From a virus: DNA of 64,000 nucleotides. The stretch spans positions 39,879-103,878 of the IMG/VR virus record IMGVR_UViG_3300023179_000044; one strand, 5' to 3'. Both the position numbers and the translations under genes were made by a program. The notes beneath the pieces are model-generated. The model did not search any database. It saw only the letters and a program-made list of their open reading frames with translations, and was not told the origin of the DNA. How positions within the stretch are numbered: position 1 is the stretch's first letter; every line of letters starts with the position of its first letter. Positions 36,762 to 54,288 of the stretch are shown piece after piece.

Positions 36762-36935
36762 TTTTTTCCTTTGTTAGTTTTTCGGCTGGTTGCCGTGTTA
36801 CTAGGCTACGATACACCACCGACATAGAGCAACACTAATAGCAGTTTTTTTGTATCTACTGGAAAAAATGAAAAATGTTATTTAGAGTTGCTGGCTAAAA
36901 ACTTGGGGCTAAGTCTATTGACCTAGCCCCAGATT

Positions 36936-37115: not shown

Positions 37116-37366
37116 TTGACCGATACCTTTTCCCACTGGTCTTTGTTATCAACTAACTCTTTTACATCTAGCGAGATTTGATACCACGCTTGGAATAGCA
37201 TTAGACCATAAACATCTAGGGTTAGACCAGTTGAGCCATTGTAGAGATAACCCTTTGGCAGTTCCAGCGTTGCTAGACCATCACTATAAAAAATAGTTAT
37301 GCCATTATCTTTTGCTAGGTTTATAGTCTTTACTATGTCCCCAGTTCCAAATGTTTTCTTAGCCAT
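37112..37366 (-). CDS. Hypothetical protein
   Basis: GATAGG RBS and promoter upstream. Confidence 0.65.
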   Translation of the reverse strand: MAKKTFGTGDIVKTINLAKDNGITIFYSDGLATLELPKGYLYNGSTGLTLDVYGLMLFQAWYQISLDVKELVDNKDQWEKVSVK

Positions 37367-37551
37367 TTGAGTTTGTTCCTATCTTTTAGGGGGTCTGCTG
37401 GTTGCTGACCCGTGTTATCACTCTACACCTAAATAGAAAAACACCACTACTTTTACTTAGTTTTTTAGAACTACTGGAAAAAATGAAAAATAGTTCTGGC
37501 ACTCATCTAATCAAAAAATACCCCGTCAAACTGACGGGGCATTTTTGCGAC

Positions 37552-37782
37552 CTAACTATTCAGGCTATTCATTAGGTCAAACATTATCCAGCAAGGCTCA
37601 CACTTGACGGACTTACTGGCTTGACTTGGACTAGGGGGATTAGATTTGAGATTACGACCACAAAGAGAGATTACAGGCTCTAAGGGCTTACCAGTTTCAT
37701 CTAAGGCTACAAGATGTCTAATGGACTTAGGGGGTCTAGTTCCAGTTGTATCTGGCGAGATGTCTGTTAGGGCTTGGCTCAC
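37552..37782 (-). CDS. Small Cys/His hypothetical protein
   Basis: H...LCG...CEPC pattern; GTGA-coupled. Confidence 0.55.
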   Translation of the reverse strand: MSQALTDISPDTTGTRPPKSIRHLVALDETGKPLEPVISLCGRNLKSNPPSPSQASKSVKCEPCWIMFDLMNSLNS

Positions 37783-38009
37783 TTGGCTTCACACTCCCAG
37801 CAAGCAGGGGAGTAATCACTATAAAGTGATACCCCGTGTTCGCAGTAATCGGTTTTACGCTTGCGTTCCAGAACTTCGGACATCTGGTCTATCATAGCCA
37901 GCAAGCGTTCAGGGTTGCCACCCAGAGAGAGTTGGCGTTGGGCTTCTTGGATAGCATAGCCCAGAGTTTCGGCAGAGTAGTTAGCGTAGGGGTTGCTAGG
38001 TGTAGTCAT
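37779..38009 (-). CDS. Small hypothetical protein with C-terminal CEH...CWEC
   Basis: Tiled in the unit; start revised to follow the 38011 stop. Confidence 0.6.
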   Translation of the reverse strand: MTTPSNPYANYSAETLGYAIQEAQRQLSLGGNPERLLAMIDQMSEVLERKRKTDYCEHGVSLYSDYSPACWECEAK

Positions 38010-38010
38010 C

Positions 38011-38154
38011 TTAGTTGTCGCTTTCATCTAGGGTCATTTCGACTTCGGTTAGGTGGCACTCTCGGCATAACTGGGAGTTGCTATCGGGGGCTAGGGTTGG
38101 GAACACTTTACCAGCGATAAAGTTTCCACAGTCGGCACAAATTGGGGTGGTCAT
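38011..38154 (-). CDS. 47-aa zinc-finger-like protein (not in the ORF track)
   Basis: MTTPICADCG...LCRECH with GATAGG RBS directly after a PafBC-type promoter. Confidence 0.6.
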   Translation of the reverse strand: MTTPICADCGNFIAGKVFPTLAPDSNSQLCRECHLTEVEMTLDESDN

Positions 38155-38306
38155 TGAGTTCCTATCTATCGGGGGGCTTGCTCGTTGCTTGCCCGTGTTG
38201 CCAGCCTAGCAAATACCACCGACATCATCTACACTTCTCACCAACTTTTCACCAAAGAGTTCCTGGTACTGGAAAAAATGAAAAATCTTATTTGGAAATT
38301 CTAAGT

Positions 38307-38655
38307 AAAAAAACTTCCCCTAGTATCCGCAGGGATTTCTAACTAGGGGAAGTTTCGGGCTATCGCTTGGAGATAGGATTTGGGCAAGGTATAACAAGCG
38401 ATAACCCTAGTGAGTTTGTAAGACCTGCCCTTACTCTTAGGGGGCGACCCTAAGCGACCTAATCAGTATGCCTACTGACTTGACTAACTCTCCCGACCTT
38501 GTAGATGTCTGCTCTGTGTATTTGTGGAAACCGACTAACCCGACCTTATAGATGTCTGCTCTGTGTTTCCTGATTCGGCGAACTCTTCCTAGTCAACTGA
38601 TTCGCCCTGACTCGCTAGTTTCCAACAATACTTACCTAGGAAGTAAGTGGACAAC
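38307..38655 (-). ncRNA. Putative ~350-nt structured non-coding RNA occupying its own unit
   Basis: Own box (38718), promoter TTGCGT-N16-TATTCT (38662-38689) and terminator; no credible ORF; at least 6 hairpins and a 28-nt direct repeat. Confidence 0.7.
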
Positions 38656-38803
38656 AAGATAAGAATACAGGTTTTTATGATTTACGCAACTTTTCACGAA
38701 AGTTTTTTGTATTCACTGGAAAAAATGAAAAATCTTATCTAAGCGATTTTTTGGCTAAAAAAATAAGTCCCCGATTTTCAGGGGACTTACTTTTTAGATT
38801 TGT

Positions 38804-39151
38804 CTAGGAGACACCGATTACTGACTTTATCCGTGTTATCTGGTTTTCGGTTAGGCTCTTGGTTTCGCCATTGTCGTCTGTTCCACCTGTAATAACTGCG
38901 TCTCCGACAATAATGTCTGTTTTGCCATAAGACATTTCCCAGAGTTTCGTTGCTAGAAAGTTGAAAGGCAGTCCAGTTAGTTTACCTTCCTCATTTATCC
39001 AGAGAGTTAGTCCAGCGAGTTCTTGGTCTAAATCTACTGCTTCTATCCAACCTGCTACTGCTTTACTTAGGAAATCATACTCCTTAGAGTTCTCTACCTG
39101 CTCGGTAGAAACTCCACCATCAGCCTTGATAACTAATACTTGCTTAGTCAT
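38804..39151 (-). CDS. DUF3846-like protein
   Basis: V.GWIEAV...W.NEEGKL.GLP.N..AT...IVGD.V.TG. Confidence 0.8.
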   Translation of the reverse strand: MTKQVLVIKADGGVSTEQVENSKEYDFLSKAVAGWIEAVDLDQELAGLTLWINEEGKLTGLPFNFLATKLWEMSYGKTDIIVGDAVITGGTDDNGETKSLTENQITRIKSVIGVS

Positions 39152-39359
39152 TTTGACCTGCCTATCTGTTTTGGTAGCCCGTGTTGACTACATAAGTAAT
39201 CTACTACTATCAACCGACATTTGTTCCAACTTCTAACTAAGTTTTGTATCTACTGGAAAAAATGAAAAATCTTATTTAGACATTTTGCTTCTAGTTCATC
39301 TGGGCAAAAAATAAACCCCTAGATTTTTGGTCTAGGGGTCTATTTATTTTTGAGTTGAT

Positions 39360-39473
39360 TTAGAGCCTGTCCCTGCTCTGCTTGCTCTGCTTGATGTCCC
39401 TGCTAATGCCACCGATAACTGATAACACTGATAGCACTAAATAAACACCAATAAAGGCGTATTGCCACCACAT
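39360..39473 (-). CDS. 37-aa membrane peptide
   Basis: TAATG-coupled; MWWQYAFIGVYLVLSVLSVIGG. Confidence 0.5.
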   Translation of the reverse strand: MWWQYAFIGVYLVLSVLSVIGGISRDIKQSKQSRDRL

Positions 39474-39715
39474 TAGTTCCACTCCCCTAATGCTCTTAGC
39501 ATTTCGTTAGGTGAAACTTTTAGGGCAACGCATAACTTAGCAAGTGTATCTGCTGGAAGTTGGCGTTGCTTGTGGAAGTATCTGCTAAGGCTGGACTTTT
39601 GTAGTCCTGTTGCGATAGCAAACTGATTTAGCGACTTATAGCCACGCTTAGAATACTGGGCGACAAACCACTCCCAAGTAATCTCACTCTGGCTCTTGAC
39701 TTTTGCTTTTGGCAT
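39473..39715 (-). CDS. XRE-family HTH regulator
   Basis: SLNQFAIATGLQKSSLSRYF..QR.L....L.KLC.AL.VSP. Confidence 0.8.
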   Translation of the reverse strand: MPKAKVKSQSEITWEWFVAQYSKRGYKSLNQFAIATGLQKSSLSRYFHKQRQLPADTLAKLCVALKVSPNEMLRALGEWN

Positions 39716-39913
39716 CTATCTCTCCTATTTTTGAGTTGGTCTATTTGACCTACTAACCACATTACACCAGTTTCCCGAAAAGCAACACCCGTGTTATGAG
39801 TTTTTGTATCTACTGGAAAAAATGAAAAATCTTATTTAGGATTTCAGTTGTTAGTTTGTTTGGGATAAAAATAACCCCCTAGATTTAGGGGGCTACTTTT
39901 TTAGGGGGGGGGT

Positions 39914-40228
39914 CTATCTGGACAATAGGGCGATAAATCGTCTAATGGTCTTTTTATCCGTGTTTTGTTCTAGGTATCTCAACACGCTATCAACTGGCAG
40001 ATTTCGGGCTATTCTGCCGACTAATACTGATGTGGTTTGGCTAATGTATGGTGTGTGGAAATACATAATCTCACTGGTTCGGGTGTTGTAGTCTAAGATT
40101 TTGGTTTTCCAGTGTGTTATCTGGTAGATGTCCCCTAACTGCTCGGCAGTTATGGTTTGGTTGTAGTTTGTAAAGGGGGCAAGGTTTTTGATTTGTTCCC
40201 CGATTTCGTGGTTTGGTAGGCGTTTCAT
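39914..40228 (-). CDS. Hypothetical protein
   Basis: ATGA-coupled; Y....SQTTS motif. Confidence 0.65.
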   Translation of the reverse strand: MKRLPNHEIGEQIKNLAPFTNYNQTITAEQLGDIYQITHWKTKILDYNTRTSEIMYFHTPYISQTTSVLVGRIARNLPVDSVLRYLEQNTDKKTIRRFIALLSR

Positions 40229-40398
40229 TGGGACATCTCCACTAATACAATAGCGTTACGAAGTTCGGCTATACGGGCTTTGACTAGGGTAATCTGTTTT
40301 TTCTCGGTTAGCGTTTCTAGTTCAGCAATTAGTACTTGCTCACGCTTTTTCAGATGGGCTAATGGGTTGATAACCATTGGCAGTTTATTTTCTGTCAT
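40225..40398 (-). CDS. Small coiled-coil hypothetical protein
   Basis: Start revised to lie downstream of the promoter at 40443-40464. Confidence 0.55.
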   Translation of the reverse strand: MTENKLPMVINPLAHLKKREQVLIAELETLTEKKQITLVKARIAELRNAIVLVEMSQ

Positions 40399-40623
40399 TT
40401 CAGTTTCTCTATCTCTAAGGGTAGCCGTGTTGCTACTCATCAACTATAACCCTAACAACTGACAAAAGTTCTGACTATCTGACAACTACTGGAAAAAATG
40501 AAAAATGTAATCATAGGTTTCTGGCTTCTGGGCTGGTTTGGATTTGATTTGGATAAAGAAACCCCCCCTGAAACCCAACTTGGACAGGGGGGGTTTTTGA
40601 GTGTGGCAGACACTCGGCTGGAT

Positions 40624-40836
40624 TTACTTGACTTTGACCCAACGGCAAGTCGTAGCGAGCAAGTTATCGTAATCGCCACTTGTGGCTTCTACTCTATACT
40701 GCTCAATAAGTTCTGGCGACACCTTAGCGTCTTTCATTGCTCGCATTACACGAGCAAGAATAGCAAAGGCATTTCCATCTTCACCGACTAACTTGACGGC
40801 TTTGACTTCTGGCAACTTTACAGACATCTCTAACAC
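40624..40836 (-). CDS. Hypothetical phage protein (LVGEDGNAFAIL...SGDYDNLL)
   Basis: Motif familiar from small phage/MGE proteins; own unit. Confidence 0.75.
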   Translation of the reverse strand: MLEMSVKLPEVKAVKLVGEDGNAFAILARVMRAMKDAKVSPELIEQYRVEATSGDYDNLLATTCRWVKVK

Positions 40837-41034
40837 CCCACTTCCCTATCTCTAAGGTAGCCCCGTGTGGCTACATAAGTAATCTACACTTTCCCACCGA
40901 CATACCCCAACACTTTTCACCAAGATTTAGTATCTACTGGAAAAAATGAAAAATGTGTATCTCTAATCTTGCGATTTTCTGCTAAAAAAATAAACTCCCC
41001 TAGATTTAGGGAAGTTTATTTTTTTTGGTCGGTG

Positions 41035-41376
41035 TTAGAGAGTTTTCAGGTAGTCGTATAGAGTTTCCCGAATAGTTGCGAAGTAGGCTTCTGGATAAGC
41101 CTCTTTCATTAGTTCTCGGTCAAAGTGGGTGTTTCTGCCATTGACTTTTTTCAGGACTACGACACCATTGATGGTGGCTTCTAGGCACTCTCCTAGCAAC
41201 TCACGCAGGGCGAGTTCTGCTTGCTCTTTGTCTGCTTTGGCTTGGGCTTCGGCTTTTTTGGCATTACGGAAACTGGTTAGCAACGCCATACCCTCTGGCG
41301 AGAGTTCTAGCGAGTTGGATTTCTTGGCAGTTTTTTTAGTGGTCTGCTTTACACTTTCAGTTTTAGTTTTTGGCAC
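41035..41376 (-). CDS. Hypothetical protein, paralog of 36408-36761
   Basis: Shared sequence; promoter TTGTAA-N17-TACACT upstream. Confidence 0.8.
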   Translation of the reverse strand: MPKTKTESVKQTTKKTAKKSNSLELSPEGMALLTSFRNAKKAEAQAKADKEQAELALRELLGECLEATINGVVVLKKVNGRNTHFDRELMKEAYPEAYFATIRETLYDYLKTL

Positions 41377-41493
41377 TTTTTATCCTTTGTTAGTTTCGGG
41401 GTTATTCCCGTGTTATCAGTGTAGCCTAATAATCAAGATTTTACAAATAAACTCCCTAAGATTTTTAGGGAGTTTATTTGACTACTTGATTTT

Positions 41494-41652
41494 TTAGTAA
41501 TCGCTCTCGTCTGTAAAGTCGGCAGACATAGCCAACTCGCCTCTGGCGTTCATCTCGCTTTGAGAAACAACCTCATCTTTATCGCAGATGTGCTCTTGGC
41601 TCGCAGGGTAAGAAACCCAACCCTCGCAGGTCTCGCAGTATTCGTGTATCAT
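41494..41652 (-). CDS. 52-aa acidic Cys/His protein (not in the ORF track)
   Basis: MIHEYCETCEGW...HIC; GATAGG RBS; terminator follows. Confidence 0.55.
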   Translation of the reverse strand: MIHEYCETCEGWVSYPASQEHICDKDEVVSQSEMNARGELAMSADFTDESDY

Positions 41653-41850
41653 TTTTCACCTCTTTCCTATCGTGTTCCCAAACTAGCACTAAAACGGATC
41701 TCCATAAAGAAAAAAACTAGCAAGTTGCTAATCACTGGAAAAAATGAAAAATGTTATTTAGGATTTCCTAGTTTAGTTCTGGGCTAGATAAAGCAAAGGG
41801 CTAGACTACAAAAGTAATCTAGCCCTAAGTTCGCTAGGAGATAGGGGAAA

Positions 41851-42334
41851 CTAGCGAAACCTTCTCGGTGTTCGTAATCTACGATAAACCGAGTATTGAC
41901 CTATTACATAACCAGCGACCAGACAGGCAACAGCAAGCGTGATAACTGCTATCAACTCAATAAGATTAGACATCACTTCCCCCTTTCGCTAATCGCCAAT
42001 ACCAAAGCACCAAAGATTAGGATTAGAGCCAGAGAGCCACCTATAACTAAACTTTCCGTGTTCATAAAATAAAACCCTGTTATTAGAGAGTAGCACCCTA
42101 ACGCCATTAGTAAATACTTCATTACTTATCTTTTCCTATCTTTACAGCGTCTAAGGCAAACCAAATAGATACCACTACACCAAGAACCAGACCATTAGAC
42201 CAAACTTCATCTATGGTGTGAGCCTGACCAGCACCATTGGCAACCAGTAAAGCGTAAGTGATAACCCAAGCACCAGCAACTAGGGGAGTGATTAGCAACC
42301 CTGCCAATGCTCTAAAAAATACATACTTATTCAT
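41851..42334 (-). CDS. Three coupled small membrane-protein genes (42122-42334, 41973-42122, 41851-41973)
   Basis: Hydrophobic ORFs with stop/start overlaps. Confidence 0.6.
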
Positions 42335-42526
42335 TTCAGTTCCTATCTATCAAGTAGCCTGTGTTGGCTACATAAATAATTTATACCCAAATAGCAAAAA
42401 ACTCAACAAGCAACAAAAAAATAACTATCTACTGGAAAAAATGAAAAATGTAATCTAGGGTTCGGTGTTTTCTGGGCTGGACAAAAAAATACCCTGCCAC
42501 TTGGACAGGGTATTTTTAGTTTTTAT

Positions 42527-42919
42527 TTAGTAGCAATAAAGGCAGGTTGAGCCATAACAGGCGTGTTCATCAGCGTATCGTTCAGGGCAGATTTCTCTGG
42601 CTTGTTCGTGTATTTGGATAGATAACTTTTCTAGCAACCTTTTTACCTGCCACATAGATTTTAGGATTTCATCTATCGTGTTTTGGGTCTGCTCTGGCAT
42701 CTCAACTAACAGGGCAGGTTCGCCATTGGTATCAAGCGTTAGGGGCAAGTTCAGCAACTCATCTCTATACTTCTCGACCTTGCGAATTATGGTGTCTATT
42801 TCGCTGGTGTCTTGGCTGGTGTCGTAAAGAATAGCACCATAGGGGCTTTCTAGGATTTCCACCTGCTCTGCTAGTTTTTCTAGGGCGATAGCGTTGCTCT
42901 CTGCTAGGTTCTCTTTCAC
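42527..42919 (-). CDS. Hypothetical protein with C-terminal Cys cluster
   Basis: GATAGG RBS; terminator follows. Confidence 0.6.
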   Translation of the reverse strand: MKENLAESNAIALEKLAEQVEILESPYGAILYDTSQDTSEIDTIIRKVEKYRDELLNLPLTLDTNGEPALLVEMPEQTQNTIDEILKSMWQVKRLLEKLSIQIHEQAREICPERYADEHACYGSTCLYCY

Positions 42920-42927
42920 TGGGTTTC

Positions 42928-43128
42928 CTATCTCTCGGTGTTCTCGGTGTTCTTGCTTTCAGCAAGGATTTCTTGGGTTCTAGCCAAAATAACTTTTATC
43001 TGCTCTGGCGTTAGGTGAGCAAAAATAAAGCCATAAGCGTATGGATAAACTACTTCATCGCTTTTACCTGCTAACCTAAGGTTTTCTATGACCTGAATAA
43101 TCGGGTCAATGGTGGTCTGGTCTGCCAT
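42928..43128 (-). CDS. Hypothetical protein
   Basis: GATAGG RBS before the revised ATG at 43128. Confidence 0.6.
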   Translation of the reverse strand: MADQTTIDPIIQVIENLRLAGKSDEVVYPYAYGFIFAHLTPEQIKVILARTQEILAESKNTENTER

Positions 43129-43320
43129 AATCGGTGTCCTATCTGTCGGGGGCTTTTCCATAAAACAACTATAACCCTAACCACTGACGAAGCTTCACTA
43201 CTTTTTATCAAAAAAAAATAGATACTGGAAAAAATGAAAAATGTTATTACTGCTTTTTTTCTTGGACAAAAAATAAACCCCCCTAAGTTCAGGGGGGAGT
43301 ATCTTGATAACTAGGCTAGA

Positions 43321-43734
43321 TTAGTCATCTAAGGCTATTTCAGCGACCTCTAAGGTAAAGGTTGCCCAATACTCATCATGGCTAGACCTAACTACCTCTA
43401 ACACGCTGTAATCATCATTAGAGTAAAAGCGAAGTGTGAAGTCGCTATCTAGGCTAAGGTCGCTAATCAAGTTTTCAGGGTTGCTAATTTTATAGCCAGA
43501 GCGTCTATCCCAATTTAGGTTTTTAGCGTTGATTAGAATTGGAGTTTTCAGTTCATAAGAATTGGCAGTCATCCACTTTTCCAGCAAGTCAAACTTGATG
43601 TTATCTAAGTCATCTTGCCAGCAACCATAGCAGTCTTCACTAGGTTTTGATGTTTTAGTTTCTTCATCATAATCCTCACAAGAGCAAGTGTCGCTAAGTG
43701 TATAGCGAAGCGTTAGTTCAGTTTTAGTTCCCAT
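43321..43734 (-). CDS. Acidic hypothetical protein (CSC...CYGCW...SSHD)
   Basis: Own unit with AGGAG RBS. Confidence 0.7.
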   Translation of the reverse strand: MGTKTELTLRYTLSDTCSCEDYDEETKTSKPSEDCYGCWQDDLDNIKFDLLEKWMTANSYELKTPILINAKNLNWDRRSGYKISNPENLISDLSLDSDFTLRFYSNDDYSVLEVVRSSHDEYWATFTLEVAEIALDD

Positions 43735-43979
43735 AATAATCTCCTAAGTAAGTTTTGGCAGTTGCCATAAATAGAGGCTAGCAAACTTTATAAAAATAAC
43801 TCGCAACTTGGATAACTTTTTGATAACTTTTTTTCTTTATTTATTATCTAGTGGAAAAAATGAAAAATAGTTAGTAAGGTTTTTGTTCCCTTTTAGCAAC
43901 TTATCAAAATAAGATGTATTCTGCTCTAAGTCCCCCCTAAATAATCTAATAATGGAAAAAATGAAAAATAATCTAGCAA

Positions 43980-44490
43980 CTTTTATAGATTTTTACAGGT
44001 TTTTACAGGTTTTTACAGGTTTTTACAGATTTTTACAAATTTTTTATTATTTTTTACTTTTATTTTTTGATTTTTACAGATTTTTACAGATTTTTACAGA
44101 TTTTAGCGTTTTTTGGCTTTTTAGGCGTTTTAGGGCTTTTAGCGTTTTTCAGGCGTTTCGGGGTTTTAGGCGTTTTAGGGCTTCTATGGGCTTTTAGAGC
44201 GTTTCCAGCCAGAAACGGCTGTTAGACGGGTTTGGCTATCCGTCAAGGCTTCTAGGCTCTATCGGGTCTAAGGTCTATCCGTCAAGTGTAGGCAGGGGGC
44301 TTATAGGCGAGCCGTCATTTAGCGAGCCGTTGAGTTCAGGGGGCTTATAGGCGAGCCGTCAAACTGCTAGCCGTTGGCTTTTAGGGCTTATAGGCGAGCC
44401 GTTGATTTGCTAGCCGTCATTTAGGCAAGCCGTCAAATGCTAGCCGTTGGCTCGCCTAGCCGTGTTGATTAGGCGAGCCGTTAGGCTTGC
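43980..44490 (+). repeat. Non-coding tandem-repeat block, candidate origin or bent-DNA site
   Basis: ~10-bp TTTTTACAG(G/A) units 43981-44101; TTTTAG(G/C) units 44101-44197; GGCGAGCCGT / GCTAGCCGT / GGGCTTATAGGCGAGCCGT units 44295-44482. Confidence 0.85.
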
Positions 44491-44494
44491 TGGT

Positions 44495-44842
44495 TTAGGC
44501 TTGCCGTTCAGTTTCTATACTAAACTCCGTGTATTCCACGCCGTCAATGGTATAAACACCCGTATCAGCATCAACCGACACGCTTGGAACATTTATCCAC
44601 TCTGTTCCCGTTAGGCTACCCGTTTCTATCCCGAAAGATAACTCGCCATTATAGTTTCCAAGCCTGACGGCGAACTCGTAAAAGATTTGAGCAGCCAAGT
44701 AAGACGGGTCGCCAATACGCCCCGTGTTCTCTAAAACATTTCTTACTGCTGTTAGGTTGTCCGTGCCTGACCAATGCCCGTAAAAAACTACGGGTTCAGG
44801 AAAACGCTGGCTGGTGATTTCTATAAATGCTCTGTCGCCCAT
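44495..44842 (-). CDS. Hypothetical phage protein (MGDRA...Y.HW.G)
   Basis: 115-aa ORF with a familiar N-terminal motif. Confidence 0.7.
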   Translation of the reverse strand: MGDRAFIEITSQRFPEPVVFYGHWSGTDNLTAVRNVLENTGRIGDPSYLAAQIFYEFAVRLGNYNGELSFGIETGSLTGTEWINVPSVSVDADTGVYTIDGVEYTEFSIETERQA

Positions 44843-44844
44843 TT

Positions 44845-45309
44845 TTATTTGTTCTCGCTTTCTTTGATTTTGTTGAGTTGGTTTATCGTATCACGCAAGA
44901 TGTTCATAGCCCTACCATTTGTAATAGGTGCGTGTTCATTTTCTAGTGTTGCTAAATGGTTCTCCAAATCAGCGATAACTGATTTTAGTGTTGGAACTAA
45001 TAGCGTTGGTGTTAGTGTTTCCATTTCTGATTTCTCGCTTTCTGTTTCAGGGTTGATAAATGTTTCCAAGTGGCATAACTCTACCATTTTGGAAACAGAT
45101 AGGATTTTTGAGCCACCAAAAGTAATCCCTTTTGGCAACTCTATTTCACTATCCCAGTAGCCGAAGTTTGCTAACTCTATTGCCTGTAAGCAAGGCTCTC
45201 TTAGGTCTATTGGAAGTGGTGGATAGTGGTTGCCTAGTAAGTGCCAAGTTATTCTTTTATCTAGGGCTATCTCGGTGTTGCTAACTATGTTCTCGCTTAG
45301 TTTGCTCAT
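44845..45309 (-). CDS. Hypothetical protein (WHL..NHYPP motif)
   Basis: GAAAGG RBS; promoter TTGATT-N17-TAGACT. Confidence 0.7.
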   Translation of the reverse strand: MSKLSENIVSNTEIALDKRITWHLLGNHYPPLPIDLREPCLQAIELANFGYWDSEIELPKGITFGGSKILSVSKMVELCHLETFINPETESEKSEMETLTPTLLVPTLKSVIADLENHLATLENEHAPITNGRAMNILRDTINQLNKIKESENK

Positions 45310-45481
45310 TTGTTTCCTTTCAGTTAGGTAATGAAAGTCTAGTGATTTTTTTTACCCAAATCAAGTTATTTTCGGTGTGTTATCAAAAAGTTAGTTTTAC
45401 TGGAAAAAATGAAAAATCTAGTAAAAAGTTTCCAACTAAAAAAATCCCCCTATGCGAAACAATAAACATAGGGGGAAGTTT

Positions 45482-46193
45482 TTATTTTCTATCTTTACAG
45501 CCTACACAAACCCAGATAGCGTGTTCATAGTTAGGGTCAAGGTCAAGTCCAGAAGTATCTACAAAGTAAAGTGGTTCGCTGGCTAATCCAGTTCCACACA
45601 TTTCACAGGTGAAAACATTTTCGCCTTTACAGCAACTACATTTATCAAGTTTTTTGTTCGTGTCCATTAGTCCCACCCCATACAACCACAATAATAATCG
45701 TCAGTTGGCTCGTCAGGCGTGTATCTAAAAAACGCTAAGTCAGGGCTACTTGGTTTTGGATTATGAGCCCTATTAGTTTTTTCACTTCCACAGGTAGCCA
45801 TACGACCTGCTAACTGCTCTGGTGTTGGTTTTGCTGGTGTTAGTTCATTTTTATTTTCCATTTAGTTTCTCCTTAGTCTTGCTCAAACTCTACTAAATAA
45901 ACTTCGGGAATAACAGCGTCTAATCCTGTTGAGAACATACTTTCTAAACTATCGTATCCACCTAGTTCATCATAAAGAAACTCTTGGAAATCATCTGTGT
46001 ATTTGGTATCTACAACTAGCCAAGATAAATCGTTATACTCGTTTTCCCTGCTCATTTGTAGCCATTGTTCAGTTCCACGCCATAAGAACCAAACAAATCT
46101 ATCGGTGTAATCACCCTGAACCTTGACTAACTTTACATCAGGTATCCAGCCATTTAGTTCGTCAGCGTAGAAATCGTGTTTTACTTTTTCCAT
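45482..46193 (-). CDS. Three small genes: 45873-46193 (acidic), 45667-45861 (YYCGC), 45482-45667 (CxxC-rich)
   Basis: Tiled ORFs with RBS or TAATG coupling; starts revised. Confidence 0.6.
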
Positions 46194-46365
46194 TGGTGTT
46201 CCTTTCCAAGTTTGTTGATACAGATACACTAACACAGCCCACAGACATTTTTCTATTTTTATTTATTATCTAGTGGAAAAAATGAAAAATGTATTTCAGG
46301 TCTGGCTCATAAAAAGTTTGAGCAGTTTAGACACTTGCTCAGGTGTTTTCCTTTTCAGGAGTGGT

Positions 46366-46881
46366 CTAGCAGATAGAGAACCCACCAGAGTTCTCTAAAA
46401 ACTCTGCGAACTCTTTTAGGTCGTCAAGTTCCAGCGAGTAGTTAGTGTCCCAACTCTCTTTCTTGCCCTCGCCATTACAGCCATTACACCAGCCAGTTTC
46501 TCTGCCTAACATAATCGCCTGTTCAGGTGATAACTTGTGTTCTGGCATTTGGTTCTGGACACCTACTTCATCACTTCTAATACCAGTTCCAGCACATAGG
46601 TCGCAGTTTTCTAGTGGCAGACTAGCCAGATAAGCGTTTCTTTGCTCTATGTATTCACTAGCCTTGCCAGTTGCTAAATCGTCTTTGATACGCTTGGCGA
46701 GTTCCTTAGCACCTGTTTCGTCTAGTCCATCGCCATCGTTGTAATGCCCAGAAACATTAGCAACTAGGTCATTATAGTTATCCACGCAGAACTCCCAGAG
46801 TGGTCGCCAGCCCCAGACACTTCGCCTGAAATAAGCCCCTACTTCATTAGCAGGGTTTTTACCAAATACATCCATACCCAT
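46366..46881 (-). CDS. Hypothetical protein with DnaJ-type CxxCxGxG zinc motifs
   Basis: YFRRSVWGWRPLW; CDLCAGTG and CNGCNGEG; promoter TTGCGT-N18-TAGATT. Confidence 0.75.
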   Translation of the reverse strand: MGMDVFGKNPANEVGAYFRRSVWGWRPLWEFCVDNYNDLVANVSGHYNDGDGLDETGAKELAKRIKDDLATGKASEYIEQRNAYLASLPLENCDLCAGTGIRSDEVGVQNQMPEHKLSPEQAIMLGRETGWCNGCNGEGKKESWDTNYSLELDDLKEFAEFLENSGGFSIC

Positions 46882-47084
46882 TTTTCGTTTTCCTTTCGCT
46901 AGGGTTATTTATTTGATAACTGAAATCTACCAAACAAACTTCCAAAAACGCAACTTATTTCATAACTTTTTGATAAACATTTTTCTTGCTTTGGTTATTA
47001 GTGGAAAAAATGAAAAATCTTTTCTTGACATTTTTGGGGAAAAAGTTAGTTTTCCCTTATGGGAAAAACTAACGATTAGAAATA

Positions 47085-47282
47085 CTATTCAGTTTTAGTT
47101 TCAGGTTCATCATCACCAAAATCCACCAAGTCATAGGCGAGTATCTGGCGACCTACCTTGTCGTAGATGACTTCATAAATCTCTCCGTCATCTCCATTTG
47201 CTTCGGCTTCCGTCTTTGCTTCCAAGAGCAAGGCAAGCAGTAGGTTTGCTTCTGCTTCTGTTAGGCGTTTAGGGTCTTTCAT
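47085..47282 (-). CDS. Small acidic hypothetical protein
   Basis: ORF ending just before a terminator. Confidence 0.5.
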   Translation of the reverse strand: MKDPKRLTEAEANLLLALLLEAKTEAEANGDDGEIYEVIYDKVGRQILAYDLVDFGDDEPETKTE

Positions 47283-47350
47283 CTGCTATCCGTTAGTTGT
47301 TGGTCTGGTCTAGTCTGGTCTAAGGTCTATCCGTCAGGTCTGGGCAACTA

Positions 47351-47641
47351 CTATGCGAGCCGACTTGGTTGGCTGTCCGTCAAAAGTTGCTCGGCTGTAT
47401 CTGGCACTCTAAATCCCATACGCAAGCCGACTATCACTACAAGTTCAGCCGTGTCCATACCAAGACACTTGGCGATTTCATTTAGAACTTCACTACTCGC
47501 TTCTTTTCTACCCTGTTCTAGTTCCCAAAGGTAGTTATGTGAAATCCGTGCCTGTGATTTGTTTATGGTTTCTCGCAGAGTTAGTTGGTTCTTGTATCGG
47601 TGTTCGGAGATAACTTCTCCTAATGCTTGCCTGAATAACAT
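47351..47641 (-). CDS. ClgR-like XRE-family transcription regulator
   Basis: LFRQALGEVI...R....LTLRE....A.IS..YL.ELEQGRKEASSEVL..IA..L resembles actinobacterial ClgR. Confidence 0.75.
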   Translation of the reverse strand: MLFRQALGEVISEHRYKNQLTLRETINKSQARISHNYLWELEQGRKEASSEVLNEIAKCLGMDTAELVVIVGLRMGFRVPDTAEQLLTDSQPSRLA

Positions 47642-47822
47642 TTGTTAGTCCAAGTCCTTTCCGTGTTTTGAGTTGTATTCGTCAATAGCCTTACGAACTT
47701 CCACAGCGTAAGCAGGGTGTCGTGCCATAGACATCAGTAGTTTTTTCTTTTCCGTGCTGGTTAGAAAAATCCAGCGAAAGCGATACCAGAGTGTAATGAG
47801 CGTGTCTTTCATAATCTTTTCC

Positions 47823-48305
47823 TTACCTAATGAATACTACTGCTACTAATCCAAAATACACCAGATAGATAAATGGGGCAAGTCTGCCACCAATAATCTC
47901 TCGCCTACTACGCCACATAACGAGATACACACTTCCTATTACAAATGCCATAGATACAAGTGGCAATACTAGCCAGACCCAAGCGAACTTCCAAGATAGA
48001 GATAGACCCATAACTACAAATAACTTTACATCACCCATACCAATACTTTCCCATTTAGCGTGTATGTAAGTGAACACAGCAAGTAATACCACTCCAAAAA
48101 TAAGTGGCATAACTAATCCCCATAGCCACTCACCAGATACAACTGCGTAAGTAATGGCAGAGCCTAGCCAGAGCCAGATAGTAGGTAGCGTGTATTTGTT
48201 AGGAACTCTATTTTCCATAAAGTCCCAAATCAGTATTGGGATAGCAACTACGCATAAGTAGATAGCAGGAAGCGAAGCGATTATTTGTTGTTGTTGTGTA
48301 TTCAT
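47823..48305 (-). CDS. Prepilin peptidase-like (A24) membrane aspartic protease; leaderless start at 48305
   Basis: WDF...RVPN and GMGDVKL catalytic Asp motifs; multiple TM helices. Confidence 0.8.
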   Translation of the reverse strand: MNTQQQQIIASLPAIYLCVVAIPILIWDFMENRVPNKYTLPTIWLWLGSAITYAVVSGEWLWGLVMPLIFGVVLLAVFTYIHAKWESIGMGDVKLFVVMGLSLSWKFAWVWLVLPLVSMAFVIGSVYLVMWRSRREIIGGRLAPFIYLVYFGLVAVVFIR

Positions 48306-48501
48306 AAATCCCACTATACAAGTTAGGTGCGACATTTTACAAATCTTTTTTGGCGTGTTTTATTATTTAGTGGAAAAAATGAAAAATCTTATGAGCCAAA
48401 AAAACTAAAAAAAAACGCTGGTAGATAAACGAGAAAATCTACCAGCATTTTTTCACTTAGAAAGGAGTGATTATTTATTTATGGGTGTTGCTTGGTTCTG
48501 G

Positions 48502-48873
48502 TTAGAGAACATCAACTCGTAGAGTTGGCTCGCCAGCACCTTTGGCGACCCTGTAAGGTTCTAGCAGAGAGTAAAGTTCAGGATTTTCTCTCTCCAACTT
48601 ATCAAGGTCAAGTTTGGCAGGACTAGGGATAAGTTTGATAGACAATAAACGCTTACCCTTAGCGTCAGTTGCTACCAAATCAGATGTGATAGAGCCAACA
48701 GCGTCAAGAATAGCCTGTCTTGCTTGGTCAGACATTTCCTTTGCTTGCTTACCTAAATCACGACCATTACGCAGGTTTGCTACCTGCTTTTGTATGGCTG
48801 GTTTTAGAACTACTACCTGTGGGGTAGAAGTGCTAATGCTTGTAGTGCTTTGGTTCTTAGTTGCGTTTCCCAT
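48502..48873 (-). CDS. Hypothetical protein, distant relative of the 36408/41035 paralogs
   Basis: Helix, then AILDAVG...LD.DKLERENPELY pattern. Confidence 0.6.
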   Translation of the reverse strand: MGNATKNQSTTSISTSTPQVVVLKPAIQKQVANLRNGRDLGKQAKEMSDQARQAILDAVGSITSDLVATDAKGKRLLSIKLIPSPAKLDLDKLERENPELYSLLEPYRVAKGAGEPTLRVDVL

Positions 48874-48977
48874 TTGGAGTTCCTTTCGTTAGATTACCTT
48901 TGGGTGTATTGCTCTAATAGTAAATCACGATTTCTAAAATCTCGCAAGTTTATTTGATAACTTTTTGATAAACATTT

Positions 48978-49335
48978 TTAGGGAGTTTCTACCTGCTGTG
49001 GCTCGCCACACTCATAACAAGTTATGTAGCCAAGTCCGTCCCCAACAGGTGTTATCTCAAAAGTATCTACTGCTTTTAGTCCACACTCCGAGCAGTTGAT
49101 TTCAGTTTCCAGCGTCAGGGCTGTCTTGCTAGTCCGTTGGTTGCTCATACTCGTCCCAGATGTCTTGTCCGTCAATAAGGCTAAGGTCAGACCCGTTGTC
49201 CCACTTTACACGAATAGTCTTAGACCCCCACGGGTCTATGTATTCACCACGCTTTACTCCAAGCGAGCCGACTTTTAGATTTGTGTAGGGGTCGTCAGTA
49301 TGGACGAGCCGAACTCTGATTATTTGTTCCGTCAT
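48978..49335 (-). CDS. Two small genes: 49129-49335 (DUF4314-like) and 48978-49148 (zinc ribbon)
   Basis: RVRLVH.DDPY..L..G..G....D..G..I.VKWDNGS.L.LI.G.D; CSEC...CYEC. Confidence 0.65.
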
Positions 49336-50135
49336 TAGTTATCCGTTTCTGGTATCGGGTATAAACGAACTCCGTTTTCATCTTTGACTATGATAGTGGA
49401 GAACTCATCTACTACTAAACTATCCACCTGTTTATCTGCTAGTTCCCACGCCTGTTCAGGATTTTCGGCTATGACTTTGTATGTCCGTGTAATCTCAACA
49501 AAGAAATCTTTTACTTTTCTTGGGCAGTCCTCATACCAGTTTTCAGTTTCCTCGTCCCAAGCACAGACACACCCGTCCTCGTTATCTCGTTCCACATAAT
49601 CGGTATGGCAGTTTGGTATCCCCCACTCCTTAGTAAGCACTAACTCGCCATTTTCACCAGAGAACTCAGCCCCCCAGCCCTGTTCTTCTTCACTACAAAA
49701 CTCAAAAGATAGTTCTGGGTGTTGCTCTACCATAGCCACAAATACAGGTTCGGGAATAGACCAAGCAGTAGAGAAGTTCATAACAAGTTTAGAAGTTTTG
49801 TCTTTTTTGTTGATAGTGGTATTACCAGAATAATCGCAAGCGTCCCATTTGGTATCCCAGTTTTCATTGTTCCAGTTATACCAGTTGGTAGGAGTGTCGC
49901 CTTTTCTCTCGCCATTTTCCCAACCATTAGTGCCAAAGTATTCGCCACTCTCAACTGCGTCCTGTGGTGGTGCTACAAAGTTCCAGAACGACAACTCTAC
50001 TTCGGTGCTATAAACTACCTTGCCAGTTTCTTTATCAAAACTATCTGGGTGTGGGGCTGTTGCCTTGTCGTAAAAAGTTTCTACATCTTTGATAGAGCCA
50101 GTAATAGTTATGTTGTTATAGACCCAGTTAGGCAT
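49335..50135 (-). CDS. DUF1281/YubB ferredoxin-like domain protein
   Basis: MPNW..N.I.I.G...WY.W...NW.TKWD...F.TAWS.P...EE. Confidence 0.75.
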   Translation of the reverse strand: MPNWVYNNITITGSIKDVETFYDKATAPHPDSFDKETGKVVYSTEVELSFWNFVAPPQDAVESGEYFGTNGWENGERKGDTPTNWYNWNNENWDTKWDACDYSGNTTINKKDKTSKLVMNFSTAWSIPEPVFVAMVEQHPELSFEFCSEEEQGWGAEFSGENGELVLTKEWGIPNCHTDYVERDNEDGCVCAWDEETENWYEDCPRKVKDFFVEITRTYKVIAENPEQAWELADKQVDSLVVDEFSTIIVKDENGVRLYPIPETDN

Positions 50136-50147
50136 TTCTACTCCTTA

Positions 50148-50465
50148 TCATTGGAAGTTGTCCAGTATCTCTTGGATTTCACTTTCGCTAAGTCCACTCT
50201 CTATTCCACACTTACGGACATTTTCAGCAGTTTCCATTTTTAGCAACTCTAACCTGTCTGCTAGTGGGGTCATACCTATACGCTTGGCTATCTTTGTTGC
50301 TGTGATAACTGCTTTATAGGTGTCTGGGTCAGCGTAGCCAGTTTCAGTAAAACTTTCTACCAAAGCCCCAATGATACTTAGAGATAAAAGAAATAGCCCT
50401 GTTTCATCAGAGTTCTCAATGATTTCATCTAAATCTGGGTGGTCGTTTCCACAATGGTCGCACAT
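50148..50465 (-). CDS. Hypothetical protein; start revised
   Basis: GAAAGGACA RBS before MCDHCG. Confidence 0.65.
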   Translation of the reverse strand: MCDHCGNDHPDLDEIIENSDETGLFLLSLSIIGALVESFTETGYADPDTYKAVITATKIAKRIGMTPLADRLELLKMETAENVRKCGIESGLSESEIQEILDNFQ

Positions 50466-50742
50466 TTGTTTTGTCCTTTCAGTAGTGCGTTGTTTGTTTG
50501 TTGTGTCTAGTAAAGCATAGTTGATTTCTTTTAGCAAGTTATTTCATAAAGATTTTTTGGCGTGTCTGATTTGATAATGGAAAAAATGAAAAATCCTATT
50601 CAGCCATTTTTGGTAAAAGCGAACCCCTGATACCCGAAAGGACAGGGTTTGGTATCAGGGGTTCTAGTCCGTTTGTAGAGAACCTACTAGGAGTTGGGGG
50701 GACAAGGGCTTCGGCTCTATCCACAAACGGAGTTCTTATGTT

Positions 50743-52527
50743 CTAAACACCACCAACCTTTTCTAATGCTCTGGTGGCAGACTTACCGATAGTGTTGGCG
50801 ATTTCATTTACATCAAGTCCTGAAAGAACCACGCCATTATTTCCAACCAGAAGTGGTGGTGTATGGGCGTAGCAACCAGCAGGAACTATCCAAAGAACAG
50901 CCACGCCATTATCGGCACACATCTTTACAAACTCTTTGGCATTTCTAGTTTCGTCATCTGTGTATTGTCCGTCAGAAACTACAACCAACATACGAATACC
51001 AGAACCATAAAGTAAGTCTAGGTGTCCGTCTATTGCCTGAAAAGCCTGTCCAAAAACTTCTGTTCCGTCTGGGGCTGTCCAAACTGAAACCTGTTCTAAC
51101 TTTTGACCAAGTTTCAGAGTAGCAAAAACATCATTACCAAAATAGACCATACCAGTTCTAGCCTGAATACGCCTACCTGCTTCTGATAGAACCCAAGCAG
51201 TAGTAGCCATACTTTCCATAGCACCACTCATAGAGCCTGAAATGTCCACCATTACGCCAATAGTTAGTTCTGGGTCGTCAGTATGCTTACGCTTAGTTGC
51301 TCTCCACGCTGGTAGGTCAGAGTGAATACCCTTAGACTTCATAGCCAAGTTCTGAATAGCAACCCTAGTTTTTAGGCGACCCTGTGGAAATACCGACTTT
51401 ATTTCGGTAATAGACCTTTCACGATACTTTGCCTTTTCTAACATCTTGGAAAGACGAACAGCGTTTGCTCTTTCAGCAGGTTTAGGTGGTCGTTGATTTT
51501 CCAGTTGGGAACGACTAGAACTATCACCATTTCCAGTTGCGTTAGTAAAAACTTTACTGGCTTCTTTTTTGGACTTATTTCTTTGTTGCTGTTTGGAGTT
51601 ATGCTCTTGTAAAGTTTTGCTATCTTTTTCTTTGCCCTGTTGTTCGCCTAACTCTTTCTCAACATCACTAGCAGAGTTTTCTGTGTCTGTGTCCATAGCG
51701 TCAATGAGTTCTGTTCCAAACCCACTTTCGCCTTTTTCGCCTTTTTTGCCAGTTGGGAACTTACAGCCACCTTTTCCGTCTGGGTCAGCCTTGTCTAAAA
51801 GTTCTACCCACTTGGTAGCAAGTTCTGTTGCTCGCTTGATTTGGGAACACTCTAAACGCTGGAACTCATACCAGATAGAACGCAACTCGTCAAATAGTTC
51901 TTGACCAATAGCACTTATTACTTTGGAGTATGTAGAACTAACATCAGAGATTTTTAGAACGCCAGCGTCCACTCTTGCCATAGCCAAAGCACACGCAACA
52001 GCAGATAAGCGAACATCAGATAGGGCTTCCACGCTTGCTTCGTCCATACCTTGTAATGCTAGTTCCATAGCAGAACATCTTAGGAATACTTGATTTTCTG
52101 GCATAGCGATTACGCCAAATCTTTCTATTCTGCTTTCATCTAAAACTTGGAACGCCTGAAATACAGGTTCAGACATAGTGTCTAGTTTTGCTTGTTCCCA
52201 AATAGAAAATCTAGCGTGTAGTGCTTCGTGATAAATAATACCTGTGGCACTAGCCCACTCAAACTGATTACTTCTATCTCTCAAATCACCCACAAACTCT
52301 GGTGTTGCCCAAGTTCCAAAAGCAACTGGTATGTTGATTTCCATTTCAGCACTTGTCTTGATAAAGCAAGCAGTATGACCTATTCCTGCGTCAGAGCCAG
52401 CATAGACAACTATGTCGCCCCTGATAGCCCAGTTATTTACTACTTCTGCTATTTGCTTACAAGTTTCTAGCCACTCTTTCGGAGTTTCGCTAGTTCGTGT
52501 ATCTAATCTTGATACATAATGAGCCAT
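50743..52527 (-). CDS. HExxH metallopeptidase-like plus VWA domain protein (MoxR partner)
   Basis: IYHEALHARFS...LDE.RIE; MIDAS DISGSMS and VVSDG. Confidence 0.85.
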   Translation of the reverse strand: MAHYVSRLDTRTSETPKEWLETCKQIAEVVNNWAIRGDIVVYAGSDAGIGHTACFIKTSAEMEINIPVAFGTWATPEFVGDLRDRSNQFEWASATGIIYHEALHARFSIWEQAKLDTMSEPVFQAFQVLDESRIERFGVIAMPENQVFLRCSAMELALQGMDEASVEALSDVRLSAVACALAMARVDAGVLKISDVSSTYSKVISAIGQELFDELRSIWYEFQRLECSQIKRATELATKWVELLDKADPDGKGGCKFPTGKKGEKGESGFGTELIDAMDTDTENSASDVEKELGEQQGKEKDSKTLQEHNSKQQQRNKSKKEASKVFTNATGNGDSSSRSQLENQRPPKPAERANAVRLSKMLEKAKYRERSITEIKSVFPQGRLKTRVAIQNLAMKSKGIHSDLPAWRATKRKHTDDPELTIGVMVDISGSMSGAMESMATTAWVLSEAGRRIQARTGMVYFGNDVFATLKLGQKLEQVSVWTAPDGTEVFGQAFQAIDGHLDLLYGSGIRMLVVVSDGQYTDDETRNAKEFVKMCADNGVAVLWIVPAGCYAHTPPLLVGNNGVVLSGLDVNEIANTIGKSATRALEKVGGV

Positions 52528-52643
52528 TTGTTTTGTCCTTTCGTTTGGCTAGTAAAAGTAAATCATACATTTTTGTTTTCGTCAAGGGGTAGGGAGTGCT
52601 AAGTTTTTTACGCCTAGCACTCCCTATTTAGTAGGACGAACTA

Positions 52644-53651
52644 CTAAATCTTTGCTGGCTTACACTCATCATCACCGAATACTCTACGGAATACATCAGC
52701 GACAACTACTCTGTCTATTTCTGGGGCAGAAGCAAGCAAGTTTCCAATAGCCCACTTCATACCAAACAGATTAGCAACATCACGGAACGCAAGCAGTTCT
52801 CGCATTTGTGGCGACCAAGATACTTCACCTGCTAATCGCTTCTTAGACAGATTTTGACCTGCCGAAACTGCTGGTGCTGGAACGCCTAACTTCTTAGCAA
52901 GCGACCAGTCAGTAGTCATTTCTACTTGGATAGTGAAGCGAGATAGTAAAGGCTCGGACAAGCGAACACCAACAGCGTTAGGGTTGGTAGCACCTACTAC
53001 ATAAAAACCTTTCTTGGCTTTTACTATCCCCCTTTCTGGGTTGGCTGTGATTACAAGTTCATCTCTGCCGTCCATTAGACCATAGACCAAAGACATAACC
53101 TTTGGGTCAATAAGTCCAACTTCGTCAATAAGTAGAACTTTGCCCTGCTCTACTGCTTTGGTCAAAACTCCGTCCACCCACTCAAAACTTCCACTTGGAG
53201 TTTGGACATAGCCACCTAAGAAGTCAGAAACTTCGGTGTCGCCTGTTCCCAATAGGGTATAGAGTTCATCTGGGAAACTTGCTTCTACGAGAGCAGTTTT
53301 ACCACAACCTGCTTCACCATAGAGCAGAACATACTTACCATTTGCCCTAGCAGTTTTTAGAACTTCTATGTCGGAGTGTTCGCCCCACATACGAGAGTAG
53401 TAGTAATCACCATTTGGTCGTATGTATTTTTCGGCACTTACCATAGGTTCTACCACTTTTGTTCCAACCTTTGACTTTGTTATTGCTGTTCCTGCTTTTG
53501 CTCGCAAGTTTGCCCTAGCACTATTGGGCATTAGGGTTTCCATAATAGCAGGGATAGGCTCTGCTTTTGTGGAGTGTAGGACTACACCTTTGATTAGTGT
53601 TTCTAAATCTTTGTGTAGTTCTGAAATGTTTTTTATTTCTGTCTTTGCCAT
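52644..53651 (-). CDS. MoxR/CbbQ-type AAA+ ATPase; start revised to 53651
   Basis: GEAGCGKT, LLIDE, ATNP, LLSRF; adjacent to the VWA gene. Confidence 0.9.
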   Translation of the reverse strand: MAKTEIKNISELHKDLETLIKGVVLHSTKAEPIPAIMETLMPNSARANLRAKAGTAITKSKVGTKVVEPMVSAEKYIRPNGDYYYSRMWGEHSDIEVLKTARANGKYVLLYGEAGCGKTALVEASFPDELYTLLGTGDTEVSDFLGGYVQTPSGSFEWVDGVLTKAVEQGKVLLIDEVGLIDPKVMSLVYGLMDGRDELVITANPERGIVKAKKGFYVVGATNPNAVGVRLSEPLLSRFTIQVEMTTDWSLAKKLGVPAPAVSAGQNLSKKRLAGEVSWSPQMRELLAFRDVANLFGMKWAIGNLLASAPEIDRVVVADVFRRVFGDDECKPAKI

Positions 53652-53667
53652 TTTGATTTTGTCCTTT

Positions 53668-54180: not shown

Positions 54181-54288
54181 TTAGTTCGTCCTAACTTATT
54201 GGTTTATGTTGGACAGGATTATCCAACGAGTTCCACTTTACATCAACTTCTAATAAAGTCAAGTCCTAAGTGAAAAGTTTTTTGTTCG

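Follow-up and report, generated by a model that had tools for sequence, protein, structure and literature searches.

Two adjacent genes of an uncultured freshwater actinobacterial phage, one encoding a VWA-domain protein and the other an AAA_5 (MoxR/CobS-like) ATPase, end in RNA hairpins whose loops carry the reverse complement of a specific upstream ribosome-binding site (RBS). The genes lie in a 64,000-nucleotide stretch (hereafter the window, to which all coordinates refer) that forms the right-hand 64 kb of a 103.9-kb contig, IMG/VR record IMGVR_UViG_3300023179_000044, with an estimated completeness of 61%. Both the complementarity and its placement in a hairpin loop are conserved, and loop and RBS change together in about 60 relatives, which indicates that selection favours complementarity of the displayed loop with one specific RBS and makes it very probable that RNA pairing controls translation here. 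We consider it likely that the two hairpins are cis-encoded anti-RBS elements that pair as RNA with a specific upstream RBS and throttle initiation; that this pairing takes place in vivo we infer from the sequences, and that its effect is repression from the analogy with published systems.

Hairpins Downstream of the VWA Gene

The genes of this region lie on the minus strand, which is the mRNA strand, and a first-pass annotation had proposed that four transcripts end there in stem-loops, called sites a to d below, whose loops are antisense to an RBS. All four hold up as minimum free energy (MFE) folds on the minus strand, with the bases concerned in the loop and z values of −3.2 to −5.3. Site d, the second of two hairpins in the VWA gene's 3′ untranslated region (3′ UTR), folds into a 14-bp stem with the 16-nt loop AAACCCUGUCCUUUCG (−25.7 kcal/mol, z −5.3), within which UGUCCUUUCG is perfectly complementary, over 10 nt, to the RBS of the VWA gene itself (52534-52543). 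The target, CGAAAGGACA, is found exactly twice in the 64 kb, once at the VWA RBS on the minus strand and once, inverted, in loop d (50635-50644). Over 9 nt the same loop also complements two further RBSs, those of the genes with starts at 50465 and 53651, and all three matches claimed for it by the first-pass annotation are confirmed. The duplex of loop d with the VWA RBS has a predicted energy of −15.6 kcal/mol, compared with −9.5 kcal/mol for that of the VWA RBS with the actinobacterial 16S 3′ tail CCUCCUUUCU, which we assume for this phage.

Viewed as an intrinsic terminator, site d combines its strong 14-bp stem with a short tail (CGCUUUUACC) and a 16-nt loop, as against loops of 4-8 nt in the other terminators of the gene array. 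Compared with the closest relative, contig G001 (the contig of locus L021), the stem has changed on both sides in a manner that keeps the pairing, and the loop, diverged in its 5′ half, has kept UGUCCUUUC. The first VWA hairpin, which has a large C-rich loop, is homologous to the first hairpin of the relatives (5′ arm ...GGAUUGAGCAA), and in loci L028, L030-32, L038, and L044 it is this first hairpin that carries the complement of the VWA RBS. A target search with its loop in the window gave no RBS match, and just a 9-nt match in a purine-rich stretch at about 32.3 kb. To judge from TTGACG...TATGAT in the window and from a promoter box in G001 and in the related Actinomycetia phage DSL-LC01, VWA appears to have its own promoter; its mRNA is probably monocistronic, with the RBS 1.9 kb 5′ of loop d. 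The protein itself bears, N-terminal to the VWA domain, a metallopeptidase-like HEALH motif; across 26 homologues four of its residues (H100, E101, L103, and H104) never vary and A102 hardly does.

Covariation of Loop and RBS

The single VWA protein found no relatives in IMG/VR, and an alignment of 26 VWA homologues was required as the query, which led to 80 loci (of roughly 170) with 41-67% protein identity; homologues in metagenomes number in the thousands. Nearly all of them have one or two hairpins directly 3′ of the VWA stop codon, with unusually large, pyrimidine-rich loops. For 63 non-identical loci, the 130 nt 3′ of the VWA stop were compared with the 25 nt 5′ of the VWA start of the same locus, the null being random pairing of loci in 20000 permutations, with reversed, complement-only, and same-sense comparisons as further controls. 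The longest perfect complement to the locus's own VWA RBS has a mean of 8.87 nt, against 6.22±0.18 nt for permuted pairs, a value that none of the 20000 permutations reached, and 5.5-5.9 nt for the further controls; matches of at least 10 nt are present in 25 of the 63 loci and in 4% of cross pairs. Covariation in related phages, which the first-pass annotation had named as a check on its proposal, speaks clearly for it at site d.

More than 15 co-varying pairs of loop and RBS sequences were found, the longest of 15 nt, and the changes between lineages are two-sided: CAACGAAAGGACGAA occurs with UUCGUCCUUUCGUUG in L024, and further examples are CUUUUAGAAAGGG (L028), UUUUGGAAAGG (L030-32), GAAAGGAACGGAA (L038), CUGACGGAAGGAU (L090), CAAAGGACAAACAA (L096), and GAAAAGGACGA (L095), with three to four Watson-Crick pair types in the columns that flank the match. 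When the VWA RBS was compared with about 15 RBSs per locus, it was strictly the best target in 21 of the 28 loci with a match of at least 9 nt, and tied in 4. Matched bases are unpaired in 85% of cases in the predicted 3′-UTR fold, compared with 46% of bases overall. The mRNA strand otherwise avoids words resembling an anti-Shine-Dalgarno sequence (aSD-like words); the 31.8 kb of DSL-LC01 have a single GTCCTTT, which lies within the VWA 3′ loop.

A Second Case at the AAA_5 Gene

The neighbouring AAA gene, whose start was chosen by its RBS, has a hairpin across its stop codon (UUAGUAG-UUCGUCC-CUACUAA) in which the 12 nt UAGUUCGUCCUA are complementary to the RBS of the next gene upstream (54182-54193), and the 12-mer is found at these two places only in the 64 kb. 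The AAA genes of relatives end in ...AGAUUUAG and are followed by a stem-loop whose loop complements the RBS either of AAA itself or of the gene before it, as in the pairs GUCCUAUC with GAUAGGAC (L064), CCCUAUGUC with GACAUAGGG (L069), CUCCUCGUU with AACGAGGAG (L085), and AGUUUCCGUCC with GGACGGAAACU (L040). Pairs from the same locus have a mean of 7.85 nt, against 5.78±0.16 nt after permutation (0 of 20000).

The window has two RBS zones, with AGAUAGGAA at 36-43 kb and CGAAAGGA(C/A)A at 44-54 kb, and the earlier observation that loop type follows the local RBS type is upheld, loops a and b being in the GAUAGG zone and loops c and d in the GAAAGG zone. The AAA pair of L064, in which a CCUAUC-type loop stands opposite a GAUAGG-type RBS, supports it further.

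Table 1. Coordinates of the hairpins, RBSs, and genes (window positions, except in the last row)
Feature	Position	Strand	Details
VWA gene	50743..52527	(-)	open reading frame (ORF); 594 aa; CobT/CoxE-like; homologues with PF05762
VWA RBS region, ...ACGAAAGGACAAAACAA-AUG	52528..52552	(-)	target CGAAAGGACA at 52534-52543
First VWA 3′-UTR hairpin, large C-rich loop (CCCUUGUCCCCCCAACUCC)	50668..50731	(-)	fold −22.7 kcal/mol, z −3.7
Site d, second VWA 3′-UTR hairpin, terminator-like	50621..50664	(-)	anti-RBS UGUCCUUUCG at 50635-50644
AAA_5 (MoxR/CobS-like) ATPase gene	52644..53651	(-)	Pfam AAA_5, 6e-18; RBS UCUUAGAAAGGACAAAAUC
Hairpin across AAA stop codon	52622..52646	(-)	UAGUUCGUCCUA at 52632-52643
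RBS UAGGACGAACUA of 170-aa gene upstream of AAA (starts 54180)	54182..54193	(-)	target of AAA 3′ hairpin
Site a hairpin	38357..38407	(-)	13-bp stem, 25-nt loop ending AAAUCCUAUCUC, −20.3 kcal/mol, z −5.2
Site b hairpin	41830..41858	(-)	7-8-bp stem, 13-nt loop UUUCCCCUAUCUC, −10.1 kcal/mol, z −3.2
Site c hairpin, weak	48453..48470	(-)	5-bp stem, loop CCUUUCUA, −3.8 kcal/mol, z −3.6
G001 13-nt pair	7484-7496 and 13540-13560		positions in stretch fetched from base 27000

Proposed Mechanism and Alternatives

In the model that we favour, each loop would present, unpaired, the reverse complement of its target, which for the VWA loop would be the RBS of its own gene and for the AAA loop that of the gene just upstream in the window, or AAA's own in most relatives. 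Once the 3′ end has been transcribed, the loop would pair with the RBS, either intramolecularly or between copies of the message, and this pairing would out-compete the shorter pairing between the Shine-Dalgarno (SD) sequence and 16S rRNA, so that further initiation would be throttled and decay perhaps made faster. With the loop made last, the message could be translated during its transcription and be shut off upon completion, which would restrict expression to a burst tied to transcription or place it under negative feedback. Pairing of this kind represses in published cases, namely icaR (PMC3868564), OppZ and CarZ (PMC7398697), and aSD-like 8-mers located hundreds of nucleotides from the RBS (PMC12697547).

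A number of observations weigh against this model. The AAA hairpin of the window matches the RBS of the neighbouring gene and not that of AAA itself, and in 19 of the 63 VWA loci the longest match is 7 nt or shorter. Four Microbacterium phages (A3Wally, Big4, Pumpernickel, and Cece; L017-L020), which are remoter relatives with genomes of 190 kb, have a conserved hairpin 3′ of the VWA homologue, with the stem CCGGGGGUUGG and the loop core UGUCCCG / UGUCCCGCA amid diverged flanks, and in these four no complement of the annotated RBS was found in it. The net predicted interaction energies, −12.8 kcal/mol for site d of the window and −10.2 kcal/mol as the mean across loci, leave aside the topological cost of a strand entering a closed hairpin loop. 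A lake metatranscriptome holds a single 180-nt contig of this region (50445-50624, identical to the window), which runs from the 3′ edge of hairpin d across a promoter box into the next gene; it overlaps just the last 4 nt of the hairpin (50621-50624), is uninformative on RNA ends and pairing, and may stem from read-through or from contaminating DNA; lack of coverage elsewhere is no sign of absence. The sign of the effect might also be the opposite one, in that a contact between the 5′ and 3′ ends could stabilise the message, for which Bacillus subtilis hbs provides a precedent.

The same complementarity could be put to use by a trans-acting, autoregulatory small RNA (sRNA), in that 3′ terminator-hairpin fragments, cut off or simply stable, would repress newly made VWA and AAA messages as well as genes sharing the RBS core, and sites a to c and an ORF-less unit around site a would act likewise on the GAUAGG and GAAAGG classes. 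This would accord with the stable hairpins at transcript 3′ ends, with the 9-nt matches of loop d to two other RBSs, with the location of site a inside a promoter-to-terminator unit without an ORF, with a terminator loop of G001 that has 13-nt complementarity to an RBS at a distance of 6 kb, and with precedent (PMC7398697). Against it, the covariation is with the own RBS including its private flanks, which cis action and a trans RNA aimed at its own message would fit alike, and trans matches in the window are just 2-3 times as frequent as in controls. Actinobacteria are not known to possess Hfq, which we also count against an sRNA, and we regard this explanation as possible but rather unlikely.

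The remaining explanations fare considerably worse. That the loops imitate the 16S tail, blocking leadered host mRNAs while leaderless phage genes escape, had been put forward by the first-pass annotation, and as decoys imitating the anti-SD they might act on SD-led mRNAs generally, the host's among them, or else on factors connected with the ribosome; UCCUUUC is indeed common to the loops and the assumed tail, and locus L027 has CCUCCUUUCC. Yet the loops follow the private, non-SD flanks of each phage's RBS (...GGACAA, CUUUUAG..., ...AACGGAA), with which the assumed tail could not pair, and they vary widely among phages whose hosts presumably have similar 16S tails. Nor are the phage genes leaderless: leaders of about 85-115 nt follow the promoter box and each gene has an SD, which would leave no escape, and the proposal, which we did not uphold, is highly improbable. 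Formally, the data describe 8-15-bp inverted repeats around one gene, such as a recombinase or other DNA-binding protein might recognise, and the comparison of G-U with A-C at match ends (5 versus 22), which A/C-rich flanks confound and make uninformative, gave no support for RNA-level pairing, a point to be set against our own model as well. A DNA-level role is nevertheless hardly credible, with one arm always an RBS and the other always in a hairpin loop of the mRNA strand whose stem varies freely, with arms that are short and of varying length, with a separate pair for each of two adjacent genes, and with no associated recombinase. Chance, or a function of the loop bases as RBSs of small plus-strand ORFs, concerns mainly sites a to c. 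In its favour, controls also yield 10-12-nt complements between 3′ regions and RBS windows, and at site c the plus-strand GAAAGGAG stands 13 nt ahead of a 13-codon ORF; against this, the two loop hexamers are enriched in the 342 nt of loop sequence, and CCUAUC and CCUUUC loops recur in G001. At site d the permutation tests exclude chance, and 33 of 42 loci have no plus-strand start codon at SD distance, which disposes of the objection, raised with the original proposal, that the same bases might serve ORFs of the other strand. We judge this explanation very unlikely.

Sites a to c and the Scope of the Design

The statement of the first-pass annotation that the hairpins stand at transcript ends is right in general, with two qualifications, in that site a lies in a unit without an ORF and not after a gene, and site b overlaps the end of an ORF. 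Its further suggestion, that 5′-3′ pairing or a 3′-UTR-derived RNA acts on the message from which it comes, is strongly supported for site d, through the covariation in about 60 relatives, and for the AAA hairpin, but not for sites a to c, which have no established target. None of the three is matched to its own unit.

The unit of site a (38290-38718, minus strand) has a box, a promoter, and a terminator, no credible ORF, two copies of a 28-nt repeat (CACAGAGCAGACAUCUAYAAGGUCGGG), and hairpin a near its 3′ end; it is a candidate phage non-coding RNA of about 400 nt. Loop a complements 8-9 nt of the RBS consensus AGAUAGGA. A look-alike hairpin (TCGCTTG...CCTATC...CAAGC) is present in G001 at a non-syntenic position, and a search of IMG/VR with the site-a hairpin pattern returned 14 matches, all in unrelated coding DNA. 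Site b lies 5′ of a terminator (41797-41826), overlapping the end of a 41-codon ORF, and its best RBS match, of 9 nt, is to the gene starting at 40836; its 8-nt match to the RBS region of its own gene is within chance. Site c, just before a terminator (48417-48445), contains UCCUUUCUAAG, an 11-nt complement of the AAA RBS (53662-53672), and at the corresponding position of G001 CCUUUC is kept and the flanks differ. G001 also has CCUAUC loops in three 3′-UTR hairpins, the site-a-like one among them, and its terminator loop UUCCUAUCGUUUG, homologous in position to the terminator of site c, is the 13-nt complement mentioned above, the RBS being of the GAUAGG type and 6 kb downstream.

The mRNA strand of the 18.6-kb array contains just two copies of UCCUUUC, those in the 3′ loops c and d, and two of the seven occurrences of CCUAUC are in loops a and b, where about 0.17 matches of the two hexamers would be expected in the 342 nt that all predicted 3′-region hairpin loops comprise. 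There is no general rule by which genes complement their own RBS: for 89 genes of the contig, the distribution of matches between the own RBS and the 70 nt after the own stop equals that of permuted pairs, and the effect is specific to the VWA and AAA genes. Complements of at least 10 nt between 3′ regions and all RBSs of the window number 8, against 0-5 in controls, and at 2-3 times controls overall such matches are too weak for targets to be assigned to sites a to c. These sites are real hairpins and plausible members of the class with putative targets, and they are probably devices of the same kind aimed at RBS classes in trans. One might go further and imagine a wider RNA grammar of phage early regions, in which private, self-silencing 3′ loops accompany MoxR-type ATPase and VWA genes of unrelated phage lineages, and other 3′ loops (sites a to c, the ORF-less unit, the 13-nt match of G001) form a trans network that switches off GAUAGG as opposed to GAAAGG RBS classes during infection, an extrapolation that we offer as doubtful.

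Relation to Known Systems and Significance

The closest parallel is icaR of Staphylococcus aureus, in which an anti-SD motif of the 3′ UTR pairs with the SD region of its own mRNA, keeps the initiation complex from forming, and gives rise to a substrate for RNase III, and which its authors call a singular example (PMC3868564). Site d likewise equips the message with a 3′-UTR motif complementary to the SD region of that message's own gene. In sequence it is unrelated to the UCCCCUG motif of icaR, the phage loops (UGUCCUUUCG, UUCGUCC, and others) varying by phage, and on this comparison the phage element is an analogue and not a homologue. It differs also in that the motif is located in a hairpin loop directly 3′ of the stop codon, extends over 8-15 nt including private flanks, and occurs at two adjacent genes, and in that its support is covariation over about 60 genomes, whereas that of icaR is experimental. 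In Vibrio cholerae, the operon 3′-end RNAs OppZ and CarZ pair with their own transcripts and inhibit translation in a negative feedback loop (PMC7398697), and the phage loops resemble them in complementing, with covariation, an RBS of a gene of their own transcript; OppZ and CarZ, however, are released by RNase E, depend on Hfq, and act in trans, and OppZ also triggers Rho termination. Reporters in B. subtilis have demonstrated that pyrimidine-rich aSD-like words hundreds of nucleotides downstream reduce initiation and favour decay by pairing with the RBS, and that such words are depleted from genes (PMC12697547). A similar depletion is seen on the phage mRNA strand, but what is there a constraint selected against appears in the phage as an interaction kept and tuned at one defined place. 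Our literature searches found no description of such an element in phages. sRNAs with C- or U-rich loops that pair with G-rich SD regions include the Rsa RNAs of S. aureus, with UCCC loops, and the actinobacterial 6C RNA (RF01066), whose two C-rich loops invite comparison with the two VWA 3′ hairpins; these are free-standing host sRNAs, unlike the phage hairpins. Rfam 15, including 6C, gave no match at gathering score in the whole window, and a relaxed scan of 50400-50800 gave sub-threshold chance matches only.

Very few cases underlie what is known of natural pairing between 5′ and 3′ UTRs in bacterial-type mRNAs, and according to recent reporter work aSD-like words at a distance are strongly repressive and genes are purged of them (PMC12697547). 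Here selection seems to keep and retune such a word at a fixed place, at two neighbouring genes, and in dozens of diverged phages. This would provide a natural system, backed by covariation, in which to study the workings of long-range RBS occlusion, to tell action in cis from action through 3′ fragments, and to learn what makes MoxR/VWA pairs in particular need it, and it suggests both a compact, programmable part for setting expression levels, consisting of an RBS and a matching 3′ loop, and an annotation rule for similar elements that are currently outside RNA-family libraries.

The Phage and Its Gene Array

The phage was recovered repeatedly from lakes between 2011 and 2019, the sequencing runs that contain it being lake metagenomes, and megablast of 48-53 kb of the window against GenBank phages gave no match. 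DSL-LC01 is a metagenome-assembled lake phage with the predicted host Actinomycetia (PMC10611076); its terminase is 73% and its VWA gene 41% identical to those of the window phage.

Between 35.7 and 50.6 kb, 20 copies of the invariant box ATTTTTCATTTTTTCC (mRNA strand) each head a small unit that ends in a terminator. The distance from box to gene start is 85-115 nt, and every gene of these leadered messages has an SD. DSL-LC01 has a different promoter, yet the same ACGACGAAAGGACAA site, and a search of IMG/VR with the promoter box as an exact pattern gave seven single matches, which were judged to be chance. The four variable bases that precede the 16-nt box (35723-50594), together with its first AT, resemble a −10 element, TAAGAT/TAACAT (TANNNT); if this reading is true, the box may be mostly discriminator and initial transcribed sequence, and the transcripts of the units would share a common 5′ end. 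At 36-43 kb, many GAUAGG-type gene leaders have a small hairpin (e.g., GUAGCC-AACACG-GGCUAC) immediately 5′ of AGAUAGGAA. Against the assumed 16S tail, the consensus AGAUAGGA would form a duplex interrupted by a single U-U mismatch at its centre, and this RBS class may therefore be deliberately weakened or read by another factor.

The purine-rich stretch mentioned above (32200-32470, minus strand) is an ORF-less, very purine-rich region of about 250 nt with many SD-like units (GAGGGG, AAAGGGAAAGAGGGG). The 9-nt match to the C-rich loop of the first VWA 3′ hairpin is to GGGGACAAG within this region, which is followed, down to about 31560, by non-coding, AT-rich DNA of about 600 nt. Possible roles of the stretch are those of an SD-like sponge, of a module boundary, or of a target for C-rich loops. 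Lastly, ACCUAAUGAAUA in a 3′ hairpin at 37566-37577 matches, as a 12-nt complement, the sequence immediately 5′ of the SD in the leader of the gene starting at 47812, a match that may be chance or a further long-range or trans pair.

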